Below, piece by piece: positions 3,650 through 32,010 of a DNA stretch of 64,000 nt. The notes beneath the pieces are model-generated. The model made no database searches. It worked only from the letters and a program-made list of their open reading frames with translations, and was not told the origin of the DNA. The DNA is taken from assembly GCF_036507355.1 (NCBI RefSeq), contig NZ_AP027877.1; one strand, 5' to 3'. Made by a program: the position numbers and the translations under genes. This DNA is from Escherichia coli. GTDB taxonomy: Bacteria; Pseudomonadota; Gammaproteobacteria; Enterobacterales; Enterobacteriaceae. Numbering within the stretch: position 1 is the stretch's first letter; each line of letters starts with the position of its first letter.

Positions 3650-6600
3650 TTACGCCTTCTCGATGTTGACTAAGAACGCTTTATATTCCGGCGTTTGCGA
3701 GTTTGCATCACCGACATTCGGCGTCAGAGTGTTAGCGATATAACCTTTACGCGCGACACCCTCAAAGCCCCAGTGGATTGGAATACCCACCGTTTCAACC
3801 TGCTGACCATTTACATTCAGCGGTTTCAGACGACGCGTTACCACAGCCACCGCGCGGATAAAGCCACGCTTGCTTGAGACAGTGACACGATCGCCATTAT
3901 TAATGCCTTTCGCCGCCGCCAGCGTTTCGCTGATTTCCACAAACTGTTCCGGCTGAGCAATTGCGTTGAGCAATGCGTGCTTGGTCCAGGTGTGGAAGTG
4001 CTCGGTCAGACGATAGGTCGTACCCACATACGGGAACTGCTCTTTTTTACCCATCCGCAGTGCGTCTTGTTCATACAGACGAACAACCGGGTTAGACACC
4101 ACGTTCGGATGCAGCGGGTTAGTGCCCAGCGGCGTTTCAATCGGCTCGTAGTGTTCCGGGAACGGACCTTCCGCCATTTTGTTGATGGCAAACAGGCGTC
4201 CCATCCCTTCCGGCTGCATGATAAACGGCCCGGTTGGCGTACCCGGTGCGGCATTGCCGAAGTCAGGAATATCGTTACCCGTCCACTTGCTGCCGTTCCA
4301 CTGGATCAGCATCCGTTTCGGATCCCACGGTTTACCGTTGATATCCGCCGAAGCACGGTTGTACAGCACGCGACGGTTGAGCGGCCACGCCCAGGCCCAT
4401 CCCAGCGTATTCCCCAGACCGGACGGGTCGGAGTTATCGCGGTTAGCCATCTGGTTGCCCTGCTCTGTCCAGCTACCGGTGTAGATCCAGCAAGAAGATG
4501 CGGTTGTACCGTCATCACGCAGATGCGCAAAGCTACTCAGCAACTGACCTTTCTTCGCAATCAGCACGCCATTAGCATCATAGAGATCTTCCAGCGCATA
4601 GCCGTTGTTCTCTTTTGCCACTTCGTCAGATTGCGGTTCGTGCGGCTGCTTGTAGTTCCAGCTCATCTTCATCAGCGGTTCTACGCCTTTACCACCTTCG
4701 GCCTGGTACAGCTCGCGCAGATGATGGTAGATACCCGCCAGAATTTCGCCGTCGTTACGCGCTTCGCCCGGCGCGTCCTGACCTTTCCAGTGCCACTGCA
4801 ACCAGCGACCGGAGTTAGCGATAGAACCATCTTCTTCGGCAAAGCAGGTCGAAGGCAGACGGAATACTTCAGTCTGAATAGACGCCGGATCGACATCGTT
4901 CGACTCGCCGTGGTTCTGCCAGAAGGTAGAGGTTTCAGTCACCAGCGGATCGATAACCACCATGTACTTCAGTTTGCTCAGGCAGCTCACCACTTTGTTT
5001 TTGTCCGGGAAGGACGCAACCGGGTTAAAGCCCTGGCAGAAATAACCGGTGACTTTGCCTTCGTCCATCATGTTGAAATACTTGATGACGTCGTAGGTCT
5101 GGTCCCACTTCGGCAGCCAGTCATAGCCCCAGTTGTTCTCTTTCTGCGCGGCATCGCCATAGAAAGATTTCATCAGGCTAACGAAGAACTTCGGATAGTT
5201 GCTCCAGTAGTTCACCTGACCAGCCAGCGTTGCTTTCGGCGTGTTCGCTTCCAGATACGACTGCAAATCAACCTGTTTTTCTGACGGCAGCGTCAGATAA
5301 CCTGGCAGGCTGGTAGAGAGCAGGCCTAAGTCAGTCAGCCCCTGAATGTTGGAGTGACCACGCAATGCGTTCACGCCGCCACCGGCCATACCCATGTTAC
5401 CGAGTAGCAACTGGATCATCGCCATAGTACGGATGTTCTGCGCACCCACGGTGTGCTGCGTCCAGCCCAGCGCGTACAGGAAGGTGGTTGTGCGATCCGG
5501 TGCGCTGGTGGAGGCCAGCACTTCACACACTTTCAGGAAGTCGGCTTTTGGCGTACCGCAGATGTTTTCAACGACGTCCGGCGTGTAGCGGGAAACGTGC
5601 TCTTTCAGCAGGTTCCACACACAGCGCGGATGAGTCAGTGTTTCATCGCGTTTTGCATAGCCGTTTTCATCGAACTGATAGTTCCAGGACGATTTATCGT
5701 ATTGCCGTTTTTCAGCGTCGTAGCCGCTGAACAGACCGTCTTCGAAAGCAAAATCATCACGCACCAGCAAGCTGGCGTTGGTGTAATGCTTAACGTATTC
5801 AGCGTTGATTTTGTTGTTTTCGATCAGGTAGCGCAAAACGCCAGACAGGAACGTAATGTCCGTACCGGAACGAATAGGTGCGTAAATATCCGCTACAGAA
5901 GCGGTACGCGTAAAACGGGGATCGACAACGATCAAGGTTGCATCGTTGTTGTTTTTCGCTTCCATCGCCCAGCGGAAACCGACGGGATGCGCTTCAGCAG
6001 CGTTACCGCCCATTACCATTACGACGTTAGCGTTTTTGATATCCACCCAGTGGTTGGTCATCGCACCGCGACCAAATGTTGGAGCAAGACTTGCTACCGT
6101 TGGTCCGTGTCAGACGCGCGCCTGGTTGTCTACCGCCAGCATCCCGAGGGAGCGGGCAAATTTCTGGGTCAGCATCCCGGTTTCGTTGCTGGCACCGGAA
6201 GCACACAGCATACCGGTAGAAAGCCAACGGTTTACCGTTACGCCCTGCTCGTTCTTTTCAATAAAGTTAGCGTCACGGTCAGCTTTCATCAGCTTCGCAA
6301 TACGGGAGAATGCTTCTTCCCAGCTAATGCGCTGCCATTTGTCAGAACCTGGCGCACGATATTCCGGGTAGCGCAGACGGTTTTCGCTGTTGACGTAATC
6401 CAGCAAACCGGCCCCTTTCGGGCACAGCGCACCACGGCTTACCGGATGATCCGGGTCACCTTCAATGTGATAAATCGCTTCTCTGGCGTTTTTCGCGCCA
6501 TCACCCAGGCTATACATCAATAGCCCGCAACCTACGGAACAGTATGTGCAGGTGTTACGGATCTCTTTAGCGCGTAATAATTTGTAGTTTCGCGCCTGAG

Positions 6601-6697
6601 CCAGTGCTTGCTTCGGGGCAAAGCCCAATGCCGCTACTGTTGTTCCAGCCATACCGCCCGCGCAGATTTTAAAAAATTGTCTGCGACTGACGTCCAT
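3650..6697 (-). CDS. fdnG: Formate dehydrogenase-N alpha subunit, selenocysteine-containing (in-frame UGA at 6110-6112 read as Sec)
   Basis: Two same-frame ORFs (6697-6110 and 6061-3650) separated only by a TGA; Tat signal MDVSRRQFFK; total 1015 codons as in FdnG. Confidence 0.9.
6065..6112 (-). promoter_or_regulatory. Selenocysteine UGA codon plus downstream SECIS-region of fdnG mRNA
   Basis: In-frame TGA at codon 196 of fdnG; bacterial SECIS elements lie immediately 3' of the UGA (fold not computed). Confidence 0.6.
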
Positions 6698-6761
6698 TGC
6701 TTTCCTCTTTTTTCAGGGGTATTACTGCGCGAGGAAACTAACAGTAAAATTCTGAATCTTT

Positions 6762-6775
6762 TTGCGCGAAATCAA
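6762..6775 (-). promoter_or_regulatory. Putative FNR binding site of the fdnG promoter
   Basis: On the fdnG strand reads TTGATttcgCGCAA, a near-consensus FNR half-site pair (TTGAT-N4-ATCAA), about 70 bp upstream of the fdnG start. Confidence 0.5.
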
Positions 6776-6928
6776 AAAGAACACGTGTTTGCCACAAAAT
6801 AATCCGCCTTCGCAAATTGACCTACCTCAATAGCGGTAGAAAAACGCACCACTGCCTGACAGGCCAGTTAAAAAAATGCTATAAAATTCAGCTTAATTTT
6901 TAACGGCAAAAGAGACAAAACAGCGAGC

Positions 6929-7810
6929 ATGACACGACAAAAAGCAACGCTCATAGGGCTGATAGCGATCGTCCTGTGGAGCACGATGGTAGGATTGATT
7001 CGCGGTGTCAGTGAGGGGCTCGGCCCGGTCGGCGGCGCAGCTGCTATCTATTCATTAAGCGGGCTGCTGTTAATCTTCACGGTTGGATTTCCGCGTATTC
7101 GGCAAATCCCGAAAGGCTATTTACTCGCCGGGAGTCTGTTATTCGTCAGCTATGAAATCTGTCTGGCGCTTTCCTTAGGGTATGCGGCGACCCGTCATCA
7201 GGCGATTGAAGTGGGTATGGTGAACTATCTATGGCCCAGCCTGACAATTCTCTTTGCCATTCTGTTTAATGGTCAGAAAACCAACTGGCTGATTGTACCA
7301 GGATTATTATTAGCCCTCGTCGGCGTCTGTTGGGTGTTAGGCGGTGACAATGGGTTACATTATGATGAAATCATCAATAATATCACCACCAGCCCATTGA
7401 GTTATTTCCTGGCGTTCATTGGTGCGTTTATCTGGGCAGCCTACTGCACAGTAACGAATAAATACGCACGCGGATTTAACGGAATTACCGTTTTTGTCCT
7501 GCTAACGGGAGCAAGTCTGTGGGTTTACTATTTTCTTACGCCACAACCAGAAATGGTATTTAGCACGCCCGTCATGATTAAACTCATCTCTGCGGCATTT
7601 ACCTTAGGATTTGCTTATGCTGCATGGAATGTCGGTATATTGCATGGCAACGTCACCATTATGGCGGTAGGTTCGTATTTTACGCCCGTACTTTCCTCAG
7701 CGCTTGCAGCCGTGCTGCTCAGCGCCCCGCTGTCGTTCTCATTCTGGCAAGGCGCGCTAATGGTCTGCGGCGGTTCCCTGCTCTGCTGGCTGGCGACACG
7801 TCGTGGTTAA
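6929..7810 (+). CDS. yddG: Aromatic amino acid exporter (DMT superfamily)
   Basis: 293-aa polytopic membrane ORF; synteny next to fdnG. Confidence 0.85.
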   Translation: MTRQKATLIGLIAIVLWSTMVGLIRGVSEGLGPVGGAAAIYSLSGLLLIFTVGFPRIRQIPKGYLLAGSLLFVSYEICLALSLGYAATRHQAIEVGMVNYLWPSLTILFAILFNGQKTNWLIVPGLLLALVGVCWVLGGDNGLHYDEIINNITTSPLSYFLAFIGAFIWAAYCTVTNKYARGFNGITVFVLLTGASLWVYYFLTPQPEMVFSTPVMIKLISAAFTLGFAYAAWNVGILHGNVTIMAVGSYFTPVLSSALAAVLLSAPLSFSFWQGALMVCGGSLLCWLATRRG

Positions 7811-23712: not shown

Positions 23713-24015
23713 TTCGCGGCATGGCAATTAACTTGCCAGTCAGAGGATATTGTTGTCCGTTATGGTAGCGAAGATTTTGCCATCAAACTTTTTAATGCAA
23801 CATTGCCGGAAGCAGAGACGGTAGCAGCCAGAGTGAAACAAGAACTTAAACTGGCAGCTATCCCGCATCAGGCATCTGCTGTTAGTGCGTTCGTTACGGT
23901 TAGTCACGGGATTACCTGGTCTGCTCCCGCCAAAACGGCTGAACAAATTATTTCAGATGCCGACGCCGCGTTATACCGGGCGAAAGCAAGTGGGCGAAAT
24001 CGATGGGCTTTATAA
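23713..24015 (+). pseudogene. C-terminal fragment of a GGDEF-domain (diguanylate cyclase-like) protein
   Basis: In-frame translation ...RYGSEDFAIKL...SAFVTVSHGITW...ADAALYRAKASGRNRWAL matches the C-terminal half of GGDEF domains; no N-terminal part and a stop immediately upstream. Confidence 0.5.
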
Positions 24016-24078
24016 CTATTAGGGGACTGGCTAGATTACGTATCTTCGCTCTTAACAAGGACTGACGGCAGGGCAAGA

Positions 24079-24560
24079 TTACGAAAGCCCGCTCCCCGCA
24101 AGGACTGACGCCAGATAGTTTCTGTCCATGGCTGCTTTTCGCATCTTATGTCTTAACCCTGCCTTGAATACCTTATCATTCGTCAAAATATTAATAGCAA
24201 TGTGCCGTATCCCTGGAAATAATTCTGCTGCATTTCCTCTTCTTATTTTGCAGTCGTCTTCATTCATTACCACGTCCAGACGCCAGTGCAGCTTATTCTC
24301 CACGTGCCAGTGGTTTCGGATTGCTGTGGCGAACTTCTCTGCGGTTAAATCAGCAGAACTGATATAATATCTGACCGTCATTTCTGGCTCTTTCTTTTGT
24401 TCTGCTATTATGGACCGAAAGGAGACTGCCACGCATAATTTCTTCAGCCCTTTCCATTCAAACGTGAAATCAATAAGTTCATCAGGAACATCGCAAACAA
24501 TATGAAGACGGATTTCTTCTCTGCCGTGACTAAAATGCGAATTATTTAGTACAAAAAAAG
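24079..24560 (-). pseudogene. 3' remnant of an H-repeat / ISAs1-family transposase gene
   Basis: ORF 24079-24432 encodes ...[43 protein letters not shown]..., the conserved C-terminus of H-repeat proteins such as YdcC; further matching residues continue upstream in a shifted frame; N-terminal two-thirds absent. Confidence 0.6.
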
Positions 24561-24636
24561 CGGCGCACCTTGTTCTTTCCCAGATTCCTAATATGGCAAC
24601 TTTAAGTTATCGCCGTCTATACTTATAGAAATTTCA

Positions 24637-25092
24637 TCAGGGGTGACATAAATAGAATTTTTTTTCATCCTCAATTGCCCATAACTGATTAATAAAAAAG
24701 TGTTTTTTATCATCTAATAACAAATCATCACATGTAGTAAAATTATTAATATCAAAAAAATCATCAGCACAATTAATTTTTAAATTTAAAAAATAAAGAA
24801 AAATATTATTGATTGATTTGAGTGTAAACCACTTGTCATTAACAAATTTATAGCCAGATGATTTTATAAAATAATAATTATCTCCTGGTATAAAGGCATA
24901 CATATCATTTAAGGTTATACTCAACAAAAAACTACGACCTGGTTTAATAGTATTCCAGCGTTCAGGATTCGTATTAATTTCAAAAGGACATGAACCACCT
25001 AAGTAGTCCAACGTGATATTCCCAGAGTTGATCCTGGATGGTTTTTTGCATATCGCATCATATTCATCTCCTTTTCCATCTTTTACTTTCAT
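24637..25092 (-). CDS. Hypothetical protein (151 aa), AT-rich, translationally coupled to the upstream small ORF
   Basis: Start ATG overlaps the stop of the upstream ORF (ATGA at 25089-25092); no recognisable motif. Confidence 0.4.
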   Translation of the reverse strand: MKVKDGKGDEYDAICKKPSRINSGNITLDYLGGSCPFEINTNPERWNTIKPGRSFLLSITLNDMYAFIPGDNYYFIKSSGYKFVNDKWFTLKSINNIFLYFLNLKINCADDFFDINNFTTCDDLLLDDKKHFFINQLWAIEDEKKFYLCHP

Positions 25093-25379
25093 AGGTAGAT
25101 AATATTTAGAAAAAAATACGTGGTAGAGCTATTGTTAGTAAAGGTTATGTTAGCAAAAATCCTGTTATTTTTTTTACTCATAGCTAATTGAGCATTGACA
25201 TCCGCTATATAATTTATATGATTACATTTTTTCTTACACTCATCATAATTTTCGATAGGATAAATTAATGGCCTTCCTTTGATATCTCTCTCAAGCCCAA
25301 ACCCGTATTTTTTTATTAAAACCATTTCATCCGCAGTCGATTGAAAGGAATAGAAAAATATAATATTTACGATTGTCAT
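25089..25379 (-). CDS. Hypothetical small protein (96 aa), AT-rich
   Basis: ORF only; hydrophobic N-terminus; coupled to the downstream ORF. Confidence 0.35.
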   Translation of the reverse strand: MTIVNIIFFYSFQSTADEMVLIKKYGFGLERDIKGRPLIYPIENYDECKKKCNHINYIADVNAQLAMSKKNNRIFANITFTNNSSTTYFFLNIIYL

Positions 25380-25431
25380 TATTATGATTTTTTTATAGCT
25401 TGCAGCATTAATATATTTCTCGACTTATTAG

Positions 25432-26280
25432 TTAATGGAGAAGTGTTTTTTCTAATTCCGCTATTTTTTTCTTAACTGAATTGCTTAATATTTCATCATT
25501 AATCGAGTCTATCTCACTTTCAATTAATCTTATTTCAAAATATCTTTCTATGTTATATGCATTCTCAAATATTTGATCTTTTTGTTTAGAGATCAGTTTA
25601 GTTGCAATACGGATATGTTCGTCATATGAAACTTCATCCTCTTTGCACGTTGAATATTTATCAGTAGTTGTATAATCCTGTGACCACATACCACCTTTTT
25701 TATTATCCCCATAATACCACTGAATATGAGACATTTCATGACATAAAGTAGCAACATGAGAATCCTTTCCCGTTACTGGATTTTTTTTGCCATCTCTATA
25801 CTCAAATTTTGCGCCTATGTTAATTATATAGGGCATATCCTTACTTGGGCTGACGAATGCTGCAAATTCATTACAACCTGTATAATTTATAAAACTGCTC
25901 ATTGTTAAATCATTAGCTATAATCATTAATCTTCTCACGCCATCCATCATAAGAAATCTAGCATTCATGCGCCTACCTGTATTATGTCCATATTTTCTTA
26001 TATTAACTTCCTTATTTCCTTTAACACCAAAGATCTTACTGAAATAATATTCCTCCTGTGCTCCCCATCTCAAAAGATCATCTGCTCTTTTTATCAAAAC
26101 CAACTTTTGTGCCTTACGAGCCTTATCAATCATTATTTTAAAATGATCAGTTATTTTTTGCTCTTTCACACATTCTTCTGGCTCTGGCTTTGGTTGTCCA
26201 GAAGTTTGATTATTATCGTCCATAGTGTCCTTCCATTGAGAGAAAATCATCATTCGCAAATAGCAACTAAAAAGCAGCAT
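25432..26280 (-). CDS. Hypothetical protein with HExxH motif (putative zincin-like metallopeptidase or toxin domain)
   Basis: Motif ATLCHEMSHIQWYYG; ~30% GC; true start may be the internal MDDNNQ (26223); function inferred from motif only. Confidence 0.45.
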   Translation of the reverse strand: MLLFSCYLRMMIFSQWKDTMDDNNQTSGQPKPEPEECVKEQKITDHFKIMIDKARKAQKLVLIKRADDLLRWGAQEEYYFSKIFGVKGNKEVNIRKYGHNTGRRMNARFLMMDGVRRLMIIANDLTMSSFINYTGCNEFAAFVSPSKDMPYIINIGAKFEYRDGKKNPVTGKDSHVATLCHEMSHIQWYYGDNKKGGMWSQDYTTTDKYSTCKEDEVSYDEHIRIATKLISKQKDQIFENAYNIERYFEIRLIESEIDSINDEILSNSVKKKIAELEKTLLH

Positions 26281-26410
26281 TACTTGACCTTTCCCTGCAT
26301 AACAATATTTATAAAATAATACGTTTTATGATCTCACCTTGGGCTCCCAACAAGATAATTTCAGTTTTAAAGACTTTCACGAAAAAAATATAGAAATACC
26401 TCACCACCCT

Positions 26411-26701
26411 TCACTTACCAATTAATCTCACAGGAAATCCAACTTCCTTACCACAAATACAATCCCAAGTAACACCTCCCAAAATTTTTGATACTTTAGG
26501 CTGCAATGGCATTATTGACATTATAAATTTATCAAGTTCTTCGCTATATTTAATTCCCTTTATATTTCTTATTATTGATATTCTAGCAGTAAAGATAGCC
26601 GTCTCTCCATCTACACTAAAAGTGTAATTACAATTTTTTGTAATCTCATCAAATTCAACCGATAACAAATCAATATTATGGTTTGTAAACACTATGCCCA
26701 T
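26411..26701 (-). CDS. Putative immunity protein for the upstream effector
   Basis: 96-aa ORF whose start overlaps the effector 3' end by 26 nt; call rests on position and size only. Confidence 0.4.
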   Translation of the reverse strand: MGIVFTNHNIDLLSVEFDEITKNCNYTFSVDGETAIFTARISIIRNIKGIKYSEELDKFIMSIMPLQPKVSKILGGVTWDCICGKEVGFPVRLIGK

Positions 26702-28115
26702 TCCATACCTCCTTAAATTCCTGTTCAGTCATCAGATATCGACTCCCTTGATATGGATCATATATTATCACATTCCCAGCATCATCAACACCCTTAACAA
26801 GTACCCAATGCCCTACTTTACTTCCAGAATCCCACATCATTGCTCCCCATGAACCAGTATTACTGAGGGCATATAAACTAGATTCGCTCACTGCATTCCC
26901 TTCCCAGCCGACATCAAATTTATTAAGCTTGTTTGCCAGCGACGTCATAGATGTTAATTCTGTTCCAATTACATTTTGCGTGACAAAAATATACCTATCC
27001 CTAAGCAACATTTCCCCACAGGCCGCTCCACAGCCTGTTAAAGTCAATTGCTTTATTACATTTGAATCTAAAACCTCATCAAATACTGTCCAATTGCCAC
27101 CAGCACCACCTTCTAAAACTACCGGCTCTACAAATACTTTCCCAGAGATATTTTCTTCTGGTATTTTTGCGGGTATCATAAAGCCCCATAAAAAGCTGGC
27201 AAAATGCTCCAGAGCAATCTGATCACCATTATTTGCATCCATTATCATTTTTTTAAGTGCATCCCATGCTTGCCCATTTATCAATGAATCACTAATATTA
27301 AATAAAGCCTGTTCTTTTTCGTTTAAATTTATATTTGCCTGTTCACATAACCCATCTTCGCCTATCGGGCAAGCAACCGTTGCCGTTGCCGTATCTAACA
27401 GAGCATCGAATGTAACTAAGGCTAAATCCGCCACACCATGTAAAGTGGTGATTGCTCCATTCCCCATTTGAGTAAGTGTGTTCTCTACAAACCATTCTCT
27501 AATTTGAGATTTATCTCCTTCAATATCATTCCTGAGAGATTCTCTGATATTCTTTATTGAAAAAAACTCCCCCCATGATTGGTCAGGATCTTTTATTTGG
27601 AATAAATCATTTTTAACCTCAGGTGAAATATCTCCGTCAAAAATATTACCAACAGAGAGGAGATCCTTCAGAAGCAGTAAATCGTGTATTACTTCAGCAG
27701 TCCTTTCATAATTAAAAGTTCTATCAATGACAGAAATCATTGGTGATTTTATTTTGGTATATAATTTACCAAGGCAGTTATGGTTATTAATCCCAACAAC
27801 TGAACCATGATAAGCGACAGGTCTCCCCTCTATTGTTACAGTCGGACTTCCCGTTAAAATAACGCAGTCACCTGTTCCTTGAGATGTACCAGATATGACA
27901 CCTTTACCGGCATTACTTTGAGTTCCAGCAATCACTGAACCAACATTTAAAGCTCTGCATCCACGCGCCCATACCGTTGAACTGTACTGCCTTTCACTAT
28001 CTAAAGTCTGGTAACTGTCAAAAGGAACCTTGTCACCTCCTACTTCACATACATCTGGTGAAGAGCACACGACTTTAAATCTACATTCACCATCCCCGAT
28101 ATGATAGCTACCCAT
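26676..28115 (-). CDS. Putative T6SS effector: N-terminal DUF4150-type PAAR-like domain, C-terminal C39-like papain-fold Cys peptidase domain
   Basis: N-term SPDVC...VPFDSY...GKGVISGTSQG...TVTIEGRPVAYHGSVVGINNHN resembles the DUF4150 pattern; C-term GCGAACGEML and GHWVLVKGVDD...IIYDP resemble Cys and His motifs of C39/papain-like peptidases; downstream of vgrG. Confidence 0.6.
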   Translation of the reverse strand: MGSYHIGDGECRFKVVCSSPDVCEVGGDKVPFDSYQTLDSERQYSSTVWARGCRALNVGSVIAGTQSNAGKGVISGTSQGTGDCVILTGSPTVTIEGRPVAYHGSVVGINNHNCLGKLYTKIKSPMISVIDRTFNYERTAEVIHDLLLLKDLLSVGNIFDGDISPEVKNDLFQIKDPDQSWGEFFSIKNIRESLRNDIEGDKSQIREWFVENTLTQMGNGAITTLHGVADLALVTFDALLDTATATVACPIGEDGLCEQANINLNEKEQALFNISDSLINGQAWDALKKMIMDANNGDQIALEHFASFLWGFMIPAKIPEENISGKVFVEPVVLEGGAGGNWTVFDEVLDSNVIKQLTLTGCGAACGEMLLRDRYIFVTQNVIGTELTSMTSLANKLNKFDVGWEGNAVSESSLYALSNTGSWGAMMWDSGSKVGHWVLVKGVDDAGNVIIYDPYQGSRYLMTEQEFKEVWNGHSVYKP

Positions 28116-28698
28116 AATATTTTTTTCCTATACATTCAGGAATAATACAACTCAGCACTCCTTCTTTCATTCCAAAAAAATCAGGTATTGTCAATCTCCA
28201 GGTAAGGTATATTTCCTGTCGATTTAAATCGATAACCATTGTATCCGCAACAGGTAAGAACATATGAGATGTATTATGCTTGGTTTTTAATATAAGTACA
28301 GGTCGTATACCTGGCAATTTTGTCTTAACAACCTGTTCAAATTTAAAAAAACCTTCAAGAGTGATGTTTTCATCGCCAGAGAGAAACCCCGCGTATATCA
28401 TATCCGGATGAGCACTATTGTAGAACCTCTCATCAAAATCATCCGGCAAATAGGGATAGCGCTTTTCACGCCATACTTCATTGTAGGTTCCTGCATACTG
28501 GAGGCGACTTTTCCACCATCGAGATACAGGGCCAACGCCTTGAAAAAAGTCAGATTCCCCATTAAAAATGGTAGCGTTTTCTGACAAAGCAGAGCTGGTT
28601 ATTTGTGGGAGTTTATATTGACAACTTGTATTAAGTTGGGAAATATCAGGATAATATCCACAACCTACAGGGTTTGCTGAAAAAACCAATTTTCCCAT
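28108..28698 (-). CDS. Hypothetical protein in adaptor/chaperone position between vgrG and the effector
   Basis: 196-aa ORF; stop overlaps effector start by 8 nt; adaptor role (DUF2169-type by analogy) inferred from gene order only. Confidence 0.35.
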   Translation of the reverse strand: MGKLVFSANPVGCGYYPDISQLNTSCQYKLPQITSSALSENATIFNGESDFFQGVGPVSRWWKSRLQYAGTYNEVWREKRYPYLPDDFDERFYNSAHPDMIYAGFLSGDENITLEGFFKFEQVVKTKLPGIRPVLILKTKHNTSHMFLPVADTMVIDLNRQEIYLTWRLTIPDFFGMKEGVLSCIIPECIGKKYYG

Positions 28699-29560
28699 AC
28701 CATCTGGTTGCCAAATACCACCGTAAGCAAGCTCATAGCGTAGAGGAATATTAATAATTTTATCGTGAGATGCTGATCGTTCGCTACCACAATCTTCTGA
28801 TCATGACTGCCTTCCTTCTTACTCCCAACATTCACCGTCTGACCCACACCCACCGTAATTTTCTGGTTATTGGTTATGGTTTCCGTGTGGTCGTGTTTCA
28901 CCGTCGTCGTCCGGTCATTCAGCACCTCCGTATCCATGTTCTTCTGCGCATGGATATACACCTGCTCATTACTGGTGGCGTCTTCAAACCGCAGCTCGTT
29001 AAATCCGCTTCCTTTATAGGTTTTTGACCGGATGGTCATCTGCGTCTTCGTTCCCGGCAGGTCGCCCGGCGAACGGTTGTCCTCATGGTAGGTCCGCCCC
29101 ATGATTATCGGCTGGTCCGGGTCGCCGTTCAGAAAATCAACAATCACCTCCTGGCCCACCCGCGGTATCGCCAGGTTACCGAACCCCGGCCCCGCCCACG
29201 CCTGCGATACCCGCACCCAGCATGAACTCGCCTCCGTCATCCCGTGATAACGGTCCCAGTGGAACTTCACCCGTACCCGGCCATGTTCATCGCAGAAGAT
29301 TTCCTCTCCCGCAGGCCCGGTGACAATGGCACTCTGCGGCCCGTCCACCTTCGGTTTGCTTTGCAGCCGTGGACGCCACGTCCGGTCCGCCGGTATCACC
29401 TCTAACTGATTTCCCAGCGTGGTTCCTCTCCCTTGGCTGCCGTGCAGCGCCTGCGGCTGGTTTCCTGACAGAATGCTCTGTACCACCTGCCATTCACGGT
29501 TCAGCATCTTCTGCGGATGAGGTGTACTGGCAATAGCGGACACTACCATTTGTTCTTTTT

Positions 29561-30379
29561 TTAAGCAGCCATCTGATGATATTTTTCCCTGAAGGCTGCC
29601 GGGGAGATATTCCCCAGACGAGAGTGACGACGCTGACGATTGTAGAAAATCTCAATGTATTCCCGTATTACTGAGATGGCTTCATCCCGGTTATTAAAAC
29701 GATAGTGGCTCAGGCTCTCATTTTTCAGCGTTCCCCAGAAGCTTTCCATCGGAGCGTTGTCGTAACAGTTACCTTTACGCGACATTGATGTTTTCAGACC
29801 AAACTGCTCCTGTATGACCCGGTAATCGTATGCGCAGTACTGTGAACCTCGATCAGAGTGGTGGATTAGCCCGGCAGGTGGGCGCTGTCTCCTGAGCGCC
29901 ATAAACAGGGCTTTACCTGTCAGCTCTTTTGTCATGCGCTCTCCCATGGCGTAGCCGACAATTTCGCACGTATAAACATCTTTGATGCCAGCGAGGTACA
30001 ACCATCCCTCCTGTGTGGCAACATACGTCAGGTCCGCCACCCAGACCTGATTTGGTGCTGTAGGAGCGAACGTCTGGTTCAGCAGATTTGGCGCAACTGG
30101 CAGATTGTGGTTCGAGTTCGTAGTCGCTCTGAACTTGCGTTTCTGCTTACAGCGTAGCCTTAGCTCCTTACGAAGACGTGCCAGTCGGTCACGACCAACG
30201 ATGATGCCATTCTCTGCCAGCTCCGTCTGGAGCCGCCGGGTTCCATATGTTTCGCGAGTGCGGATATGTGCCACCTTAATCTCCAGTTTTAGCCGCTCAT
30301 CACTTTGTTTTCTGTCTGAGGGTTCATGCTGTACCCAGTTGTAATAACCGCTCCTGGATACACCAAATACCTGACACAT
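29561..30379 (-). CDS. IS600-like transposase OrfB (DDE integrase core)
   Basis: 272-aa ORF with IS3-family OrfB sequence; normally expressed as an OrfAB fusion by -1 frameshifting. Confidence 0.8.
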   Translation of the reverse strand: MCQVFGVSRSGYYNWVQHEPSDRKQSDERLKLEIKVAHIRTRETYGTRRLQTELAENGIIVGRDRLARLRKELRLRCKQKRKFRATTNSNHNLPVAPNLLNQTFAPTAPNQVWVADLTYVATQEGWLYLAGIKDVYTCEIVGYAMGERMTKELTGKALFMALRRQRPPAGLIHHSDRGSQYCAYDYRVIQEQFGLKTSMSRKGNCYDNAPMESFWGTLKNESLSHYRFNNRDEAISVIREYIEIFYNRQRRHSRLGNISPAAFREKYHQMAA

Positions 30380-30414
30380 CGCTTCAATGGGAAATTGTTG
30401 TCGCCATTGTTCGA

Positions 30415-30717
30415 TTAACGCGTATTTTTCAGCGACTCCTGTGCAAAATACGCTGTTGCTTTTTTTAATATATCTCGCTCAAGGCGAGCTTCATTTAACG
30501 CCTTACGCAGTTGCAGAATTTCAGATTCCAGTTCAGCCACCGTGCGGGAACCAGGAGTACCGAGCCCTTTTCTGGCGGCGGTAACCCATTGTCCTAAAGT
30601 GCCTTCAGGAAGAGATAATCGGGAAGCGCCTTCACTGATCGAAAGTTGATTTTCAAGAACCGTTCTGACAGCTTCGGCTTTGAACTCTTTAGAGTAACGT
30701 TGGGTTTTTCTGCTCAT
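30415..30717 (-). CDS. IS600-like transposase OrfA (HTH)
   Basis: 100-aa ORF MSRKTQRYSKEFKAEAVR... typical of IS3-family OrfA. Confidence 0.8.
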   Translation of the reverse strand: MSRKTQRYSKEFKAEAVRTVLENQLSISEGASRLSLPEGTLGQWVTAARKGLGTPGSRTVAELESEILQLRKALNEARLERDILKKATAYFAQESLKNTR

Positions 30718-31725
30718 TATTAGCTCCTTCTGATGCCATTCTATTTCAGGAAGGAGTGTCCGTTAAACTCAGGCTACCTCAGGATGCCCCGTCAGCGTAA
30801 ACCGCGTTCCCGGCCACAGCCTCGGCGAATTACTCTGCCCTGTGGCCTTTTCCGCATCACTGCGCAGGCTCTCCATCTGGTACAGCGTGAAATCCTTGCC
30901 GTGCTGCTCATCCTTGAACCTTCCCGGATAATCAAATATTTCATACTGCGCCAGCTGTCCGTTCAGGTTCTCACCCTGCTGCTCATACATCCCCGGCCAG
31001 TCCGGCACCTTAAACGTGTAATCCTGGCTCTGCACCGACGACGGGCGGACATGCGCCTCATAACGGAACATACTGAGACACTCCGTCTCCGCTCCTGCCG
31101 ATGTGTCCGGGTTAAACGGAAGCTCTCCCGCCTGTGACAGCCCCGCCACATCGTCGCACAGCGTCAGCTTCTGCTCCGGACTGTCCGCCGCAAACCGCTC
31201 AAAGAAGAAAATTCCCTCCTCCGCCCACAGCCGGGACAGAAACGCCAGGTCGCTTTCCCCGTACTGGACACAGAACTCCCGCGCCGGATGGTCCTCATAA
31301 AACAGCGGCGTCCACTCCGTGACGCCGTTCTCGTTCAGTAACGTGGCCGATATCGTCCGGATATCCTGCTGCTGGAAGATACGGAAGTTCTGCCGCAGCC
31401 CGCACCGCCATAACGGCGGCTCAATACGCAGGTGATAACGCATCTGCCAGCCGTTATTCTCCTGCATACCAAAACCCGCCACCACGCCGGTGACATAACG
31501 CTGCGCCACTGCGCCCTGCCAGATGGTCAGCGTCGCCTTCTTCTCCAGCAGCATCTCCGCCGTCTGCATAAAAGAGTCGCTGGCAACATCCACACTCATC
31601 ACAAACGGATATGACTGGCTCTGGATTAACCGGAAGCTCACCACTGCAAAGGTGTCCGGCTCCTGGCCGTCAACCTCCAGCGTAAAGCGAAGACCTTTTA
31701 ATGACATAAATACCTCTCAGACATA

Positions 31726-32010
31726 TCAGCCTATATTTACCGTGCCGCCACCGATAACCACGCCGCCGCAGTCAACAGCATCACCGCTTCTGGCGGCGGG
31801 CAGACCGTCAATAAAGACGGTTGAAGAACCTCTGGCGATTTTTCGGGGATGAGGGGGATGCTTCGGTTTAGCATGCGGCGTCAGCGGATCTCCCTGACGG
31901 GCTGCGGGAAGACCATCGATAAAGACGGTGGATGACCCGGCGGTGATGACGGTCTCGTAATAACCGTCGTGCTGGGTGCCTTTGTCGGTGAGTTTGGCTG
32001 CTAAAGGCAT
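31726..32010 (-). CDS. PAAR-repeat protein (T6SS spike tip)
   Basis: 94-aa ORF containing GLPAARQGD and GLPAARSGD; immediately upstream of vgrG on the same strand. Confidence 0.8.
   Translation of the reverse strand: MPLAAKLTDKGTQHDGYYETVITAGSSTVFIDGLPAARQGDPLTPHAKPKHPPHPRKIARGSSTVFIDGLPAARSGDAVDCGGVVIGGGTVNIG

Follow-up and report, generated by a model that had tools for sequence, protein, structure and literature searches.

A 96-codon ORF in a disrupted vgrG island of Escherichia coli is almost certainly cpi1, the immunity gene of the overlapping T6SS effector gene cpe1

The closest described system is the effector-immunity pair Cpe1-Cpi1 of strain ATCC 11775. The toxin domain of the effector (Cpe1tox) is a papain-like cysteine protease that cleaves the G101-G102 bond of GyrB and the G97-G98 bond of ParE (PMC12136450). 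In both proteins the cut falls in the LHAGGKF loop of the ATPase domain, and supercoiling and chromosome segregation are abolished (PMC12136450). Cleavage-resistant GyrB and ParE failed to rescue the cells and, according to the authors, Cpe1 may have more targets (PMC12136450); such targets would concern the toxin and not the immunity function of Cpi1. Co-expression of Cpi1 restores viability under Cpe1tox, the two proteins co-purify and Cpe1tox is pulled down by Cpi1, and MG1655 recipients that carry cpi1 are protected against ATCC 11775 delta-hns in T6SS competition (PMC12136450). The structure of the Cpe1tox-Cpi1 complex was resolved at 1.87 A with an interface of 1,050 A², and it reveals that Cpi1 sits next to the catalytic pocket, on an exosite that is concave and hydrophobic, and leaves the pocket itself uncovered (PMC12136450). 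Binding and protection are both lost in the quadruple mutant of Cpi1 at I47, M61, M64 and K72, and Cpi1 displaces the ATPase domain of ParE from Cpe1(C362A), with a Kd of 8.58 nM by BLI for Cpi1, versus 343 nM for the substrate (PMC12136450). The protein TsaP of the ExPEC strain RS218 and the product of its downstream gene (AJM72456.1) are 100% identical to Cpe1 and Cpi1, respectively (Song et al., PLoS Biol 2025, PMC12136450).

A homologue of Cpi1 is represented by StbI (8SSM chains C/D), the CdiI of the C39 peptidase CDI toxin StbD from Citrobacter rodentium. StbI binds off the active site and blocks the binding of GyrB, and the co-crystal of the C39 domain with GyrB is available (bioRxiv 10.64898/2026.05.07.723447). 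The middle domain of Cpe1 is proposed to be a YajC-dependent cytoplasm-entry domain that is auto-cleaved free at a conserved GG linker (bioRxiv 10.64898/2026.05.07.723447). Both source papers draw a comparison with Im7 and Im9, the immunity proteins of colicin DNases (PMC12136450; bioRxiv 10.64898/2026.05.07.723447). This comparison is an analogy of mechanism, as Im7 and Im9 are also high-affinity exosite inhibitors that leave the catalytic centre uncovered, whereas their fold and sequence are unrelated to those of Cpi1 and the toxin that they neutralise is a nuclease instead of a protease.

The locus presented here was detected in a stretch of 64,000 nucleotides (the window) that includes a T6SS vgrG island, located between pptA and yncG on an E. 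coli chromosome (Table 1). A sequence search of the PDB with the product of the 96-codon ORF of this island recovered chain C of entry 9L5U, named "Cpi1", with 96 identical residues out of 96 (E 4e-62). The same product is encoded by the annotated cpi1 CDS of strain N21, and RefSeq uses the accession number WP_000513317.1 for the identical ORF of other strains. WP_000513317.1 is listed in the S1 Table of the original study as the Cpi1 of ATCC 11775, and the effector that this study names Cpe1 is WP_000528852.1 (PMC12136450). In comparison with ATCC 11775 (9L5U chains C/D), Cpi1 displays no substitution and the toxin domain is the same at 100% identity. The four residues of the published interface, I47, M61, M64 and K72, occur at those positions of Cpi1; more generally, every published residue number fits the sequences of the window, in Cpi1 as in Cpe1 (C362, L387, M390, A408, M426, W428 and V434). 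The 96-codon ORF is thus almost certainly cpi1, the cytoplasmic immunity gene of the overlapping T6SS effector gene cpe1, and we infer from its sequence that it is expressed. No observation speaks against this identification. The preliminary description, made from the sequence alone, had seen in the ORF a candidate for the cognate immunity gene of the effector that overlaps it, a proposal supported by the identity to Cpi1 on one hand and by the identity of the toxin domain to Cpe1tox on the other hand. It had also suggested looking for rescue from the toxicity of the effector by co-expression and for a physical interaction with the effector, and both are published for the identical protein, the interaction by pull-down, co-crystal and BLI (PMC12136450). 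The cpe1-cpi1 pair is already known, and the prior publication is the sole omission of that account.

Table 1. Positions of the features of the vgrG island, its cpe1-cpi1 pair and other parts of the window.
Feature	Positions	Strand	Description and basis
SECIS_3 element	6057-6115	-	Rfam, 84 bits, E 1e-18; just 5' of the 803-aa ORF 3650-6061
509-bp segment	23560-24068		beside the ISAs1 remnant; absent from PapRG-04-4
GGDEF-domain fragment	23803-24015	+	C-terminal fragment, inside the 509-bp segment
ISAs1/H-repeat transposase remnant	24079-24432	-	DDE_Tnp_1
Second AT-rich cassette	24637-26280	-	downstream of cpi1
Gene after the M35-like gene, split copy	25089-25379 / 24637-25092		minus strand; 219 aa in PapRG-04-4
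M35-like gene	25432-26280	-	282-aa HExxH protein; RefSeq "peptidase M35"
cpi1	26411-26701	-	ATG (at 26701) to TGA, 96 codons; ORF call and translation
cpe1	26676-28115	-	479-aa T6SS effector, upstream of cpi1 (28115→26676); Pfam, identity to 9L5U_A and homology to 8SSK_A
Shine-Dalgarno AAGGAGG for cpi1	26708-26714	-	6 nt 5' of the ATG, within the cpe1 codons Lys-Glu-Val
DUF2169 T6SS adaptor remnant	28108-28698	-	C-terminal 196 of ~348 codons; Pfam profile positions 137-294 only
796-bp deletion	near 28758-28764		relative to PapRG-04-4 and N21
Central vgrG fragment	28765-29519	-	Gp5/Phage_base_V domains; blastn against PapRG-04-4 and N21
IS600 (IS3 family) in vgrG	29520-30781	-	99.9% identity to "IS3-like element IS600 family transposase" elements
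vgrG 5' fragment	30769-31707	-	Phage_GPD, Pfam E 2e-73; collinear with vgrG of PapRG-04-4
Stand-alone T6SS PAAR protein gene	31726-32010	-	island head; NCBIfam NF033420, E 1e-46

No signal peptide or transmembrane segment was detected in Cpi1, the maximal Kyte-Doolittle mean over 19 residues being 1.0. The N-terminus contains no Lys or Arg in residues 1-10, and acidic residues are found at positions 11, 16, 18 and 19. The lack of an export signal fits a cytoplasmic location of Cpi1, as expected from GyrB and ParE, the targets of the toxin in the cytoplasm. A check for a signal peptide had been recommended at the outset, since a periplasmic immunity protein would imply a periplasmic target; the check, judged on the sequence, is negative.

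Concerning the partner toxin, the Pfam matches of Cpe1 are Tox-PAAR-like at residues 15-115 (E 9e-12) and Peptidase_C39 at residues 352-474 (E 3e-6). The toxin domain spans residues 337-479, with 100% identity to Cpe1tox (9L5U chain A). The alignment with StbD of C. rodentium (8SSK_A, E 2e-81) covers residues 189-477, and the region comprised approximately between residues 189 and 336 is homologous to the cytoplasm-entry domain of StbD-CT. A GGAGG linker is present at positions 336-340, in the sequence EGGAGGNW (335-342). The residues C362, H436 and D453 are all present in the C39/papain-like domain, where His436 and Asp453 are likely the triad partners of Cys362. Eight substitutions distinguish this Cpe1 from that of ATCC 11775, and all are located at or before residue 294, in the N-terminal part and outside the toxin domain.

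The overlap between the effector gene and cpi1 is 26 nt long (26676-26701) and the two frames differ. The position of the start, within the effector gene by 26 nt and on the same strand, had been correctly described beforehand; which strand this is, the minus strand for both genes, had been left unstated. The sequence of the minus strand at the cpe1/cpi1 junction, with the Shine-Dalgarno, is GAATTTAAGGAGGTATGGAATGGGC. In the effector frame, this junction reads GAA TTT AAG GAG GTA TGG AAT GGG CAT AGT GTT TAC AAA CCA TAA, the ATG of cpi1 being included in the AATG of TGG AAT GGG. An in-frame stop is found 9 codons 5' of this ATG, which is the earliest start codon past that stop. The gene is small and AT-rich, as had been noticed, with a GC content of 30.6% (GC3 22.7%) compared with 48.4% in the window and 53% in the nar/yddE flank. 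The region of cpi1 contains 15 promoter-like sites, a number not above the expectation from shuffled sequences (10 ± 3.3), and no terminator-like site was seen on the minus strand downstream of cpi1. An internal promoter of cpi1 inside cpe1 was considered and dropped, as the promoter-like sites are not enriched over the shuffles. From the out-of-frame overlap and the Shine-Dalgarno embedded in cpe1, the translation of Cpi1 would most likely be coupled to that of Cpe1. This coupling is a reasonable inference because the overlap between toxin and immunity genes is a trait of the family.

The module of the window resembles the known cpe1-cpi1 locus by the 26-nt overlap and by the gene order vgrG-DUF2169-cpe1-cpi1. 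The two modules differ by their chromosomal site, since the known one ends the main T6SS cluster, near hcp and tssBC, and by the state of vgrG and of the DUF2169 gene, which are both disrupted in the window. The IS600 element, which displays the rve and HTH_21 domains, splits vgrG and breaks the collinearity with PapRG-04-4. From vgrG, the 796-bp deletion has removed the 3'-terminal 300 nt, and from the DUF2169 gene the 5'-terminal 390 nt, together with the intergenic region, so that the truncated vgrG is fused to the C-terminal 196 codons of the adaptor gene. The genes cpe1 and cpi1 are both intact despite these lesions. Proteins with a DUF2169 are generally held to serve as adaptors of PAAR-like (DUF4150) effectors, which they load onto the respective VgrG. 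With vgrG and the DUF2169 gene disrupted, the delivery route of the island for its own Cpe1 looks disabled and an offensive use is doubtful. Among the complete genomes, only two Papio-derived strains cover at least 80% of the region 24000-29000, and neither of them contains the 796-bp deletion.

The window differs further from the ATCC 11775-type system by an extra M35-like cassette, located between cpi1 and the ISAs1 remnant. The M35-like protein displays sub-threshold Pfam matches to Aspzincin_M35 and Peptidase_M91, and a sequence search of the PDB returned no match for it. The next gene encodes in PapRG-04-4 a protein with a hydrophobic, signal-like N-terminus and is split in the window. 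The M35 gene is frameshifted in PapRG-04-4 and in the O145 strain RM9872 and intact in the window, with homopolymer indels that vary by strain. This cassette may be a second effector-immunity pair in decay; alternatively, sequencing errors in homopolymers may account for the indels. The ISAs1 remnant borders the island, and such a remnant is also found where the module occupies its other chromosomal site. The Rfam scan of the whole window gave nothing in or near cpi1; its single match is the unrelated SECIS_3 element, which probably serves for selenocysteine insertion in a formate dehydrogenase and would then be an ordinary feature.

Of 5426 complete E. coli genomes, 332 carry cpi1, and all copies but one (331) are at least 99% identical. 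Each carrier genome contains a single copy, which always adjoins cpe1 or a remnant of cpe1. A full-length cpe1 is present in 300 carriers, whereas about 32 have kept only its last 476 nt. To the latter belong the O145:H28 strains, where a 100% identical cpi1 is located at the pptA–yncG site beside a cpe1 remnant created by a deletion from vgrG to cpe1 (positions 6341-7141 of the RM9872 locus). The ORF annotated in this O145:H28 remnant starts at Met369 and is therefore devoid of the catalytic Cys362. With an identical copy next to a dead cpe1, cpi1 is an orphan immunity gene in O145:H28. In the B2/ExPEC strains (N21, UTI89 and others), the genes hcp-vgrG-DUF2169-cpe1-cpi1 terminate the main T6SS cluster. 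The module is found at the pptA–yncG site in the window, in the two Papio isolates and in the O145 strains.

With its delivery genes broken, the locus can be read in another way, in which cpi1 would be here mainly a defensive, orphan-like immunity gene and/or the antidote of an addiction-like pair. The splitting of vgrG by IS600 and the 796-bp deletion, which hits the 3' end of vgrG and the 5' end of the DUF2169 gene, point in this direction, as do the roughly 32 genomes in which a 100% identical cpi1 adjoins a cpe1 remnant and the relatives found in tandem immunity arrays or behind orphan toxin fragments in CDI loci. However, cpe1 is intact in the window, with its 479 residues and an identical toxin domain; moreover, Cpe1 has its own PAAR-like domain, and a VgrG encoded elsewhere in the genome might carry it. 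We regard this reading as a serious one that falls somewhat short of an even chance. It is a refinement of the immunity explanation and not an alternative to it, and Cpi1 may act in the strain of the window solely as an antidote or as a defensive immunity protein.

As for the function of Cpi1 as an immunity protein, the mechanism published for the identical protein almost certainly applies. The protease Cpe1 cuts GyrB and ParE in their ATPase domains, whereupon DNA supercoiling and chromosome segregation stop. Cpi1, made of a curved five-stranded beta-sheet and two helices, binds with nanomolar affinity to the exosite next to the catalytic pocket of Cpe1. With the exosite occupied and the active site open, Cpe1 is unable to dock onto GyrB or ParE, an inhibition that is competitive, and the producer and its kin are protected. 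Another way of inhibition was considered, since residues 72-77 of Cpi1 are K-I-L-G-G-V and Cpe1 cleaves at GG motifs: Gly75-Gly76 could mimic the GG site of LHAGGKF and occupy the active site as a pseudo-substrate. This is very improbable, because the active site is not occluded in the crystal structure (PMC12136450) and because the GG is not conserved even in close relatives, with G76N in the Cpi1 of PapRG-04-4 and G75V in the relative P0005 (80% identity). StbI has His-Lys at those columns and none of 21 more distant relatives has GG there, so that the pseudo-substrate idea was rejected on the unconserved GG together with the published open active site.

Very improbable as well is the assignment of the small protein as a chaperone or adaptor that would stabilise Cpe1 or load it onto VgrG. 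Small genes beside PAAR-like effectors are sometimes adaptors, and a DUF2169 adaptor gene is located directly upstream of cpe1; but the DUF2169 protein already fills this adaptor role. Furthermore, Cpi1 binds the toxin domain and not the PAAR/loading region, it blocks the binding of the substrate, and it protects recipients devoid of Cpe1 (PMC12136450). The homologue StbI serves a CDI toxin, with no T6SS involved.

As an immunity protein, Cpi1 belongs to a small family. The preliminary description had recognised no motif in the ORF, which was fair, as no match to Cpi1 was found in the Pfam and NCBIfam models. A word-indexed homology search detected just 11 clusters, near-identical or fragmentary, whereas the exhaustive search with HMMER in 1.84 billion representative proteins recovered 33 relatives at E <=1e-3, mostly of 90-101 aa. 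The aligned relatives share the motif LMSxMPxxPxISKxLxxITWxYIxGxxVxxPxxLI, and the full-length homologues, with identities down to 25-48%, keep the length and the conserved motifs. With phmmer, Cpi1 matches StbI (8SSM chain C) over residues 15-94 with 26 identities out of 80 (~30%; E 6e-9). Three of the four interface residues of Cpi1 (I47, M61 and M64) are conserved in StbI, whereas K72 and G75-G76 are not. The AF2 model of Cpi1 was useless when obtained from the single sequence (pLDDT 35.8) and reached a pLDDT of 89.4 with an alignment of 23 sequences; it contains four N-terminal strands, two helices and one C-terminal strand. Foldseek aligned this model with 9L5U_C/D at TM 0.87-0.92 (0.92 for 9L5U_C) and with 8SSM_C/D at TM 0.85-0.86 (0.86 for 8SSM_D), StbI having the same fold with a curved five-stranded sheet and two helices. 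Foldseek found no other fold match in the PDB at E <0.2, in line with the authors, who also report no further structural homologues of Cpi1. Cpi1 is therefore the T6SS branch of the superfamily that contains the StbI/CdiI-type immunity proteins: the partner of StbI is a CDI (CdiA-like) toxin, whereas that of Cpi1 is a PAAR-like T6SS effector encoded in a vgrG island.

The idea that the ORF is non-coding, a chance product of horizontally acquired DNA rich in AT, which its shortness, its low GC content, the empty Pfam and NCBIfam searches and the tiny size of the family would allow, has practically no probability, since an ORF of at least 96 aa occurs in just 77 of 20,000 mononucleotide shuffles of the region 26281-26701 (421 nt), the Shine-Dalgarno is perfect and optimally spaced, distant homologues keep length and motifs, the AF2 model is confident and the protein was purified and crystallised (9L5U), the crystal structure and the functional data refuting it (PMC12136450) and the exact identity of the product to the crystallised protein making the question moot.

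The overlap is kept in more remote members of the family of Cpi1. In locus L005, from an NCBI genome, the toxin domain is 68% identical to that of Cpe1 and the Cpi1 homologue 48% identical to Cpi1, with an overlap of 26 nt; this Cpe1-like toxin domain is an orphan with an internal stop. In locus L008, from a metagenomic contig, the toxin is 56% identical and the Cpi1 homologue, initiated by GTG, is 33% identical, with an overlap of 20 nt. Distant relatives of Cpi1 (29-48% identity) follow orphan fragments of C39 toxins in cdiA (CDI) loci, and the loci of distant relatives (L004/L005, 3586-4288; L007, 42-1265; L008, 2-957) keep a toxin-immunity overlap of 20-26 nt. Tandem arrays of 2-4 Cpi1 paralogues are present in L007 and L008.

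For the biology of the protein itself nothing new is added, as the 2025 paper covers its function, its structure and its mechanism, and an independent study describes the homologous CDI pair. In recent RefSeq records the gene already carries the name "cpi1: cysteine protease immunity protein Cpi1", whereas most records still contain "hypothetical protein". In the annotation, "hypothetical protein" can thus become Cpi1, and "PAAR-like domain-containing protein" can become Cpe1, a protease toxin that cleaves GyrB and ParE. What the window adds is a second chromosomal site of the pair, where the delivery genes are inactivated and the genes of the toxin and of the immunity protein are intact, and the observation that about one tenth of the cpi1-carrying E. 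coli genomes retain cpi1 as an orphan beside a truncated cpe1. We tentatively consider, with more doubt than confidence, that cpe1-cpi1 survives in this wrecked island through defensive selection against Cpe1-armed B2/ExPEC strains that share the niche, or as an addiction module, and that the 32 genomes with a remnant represent later stages of decay. If this is true, the pptA–yncG island would be a natural series in which T6SS effector-immunity pairs are turning into orphan immunity genes.
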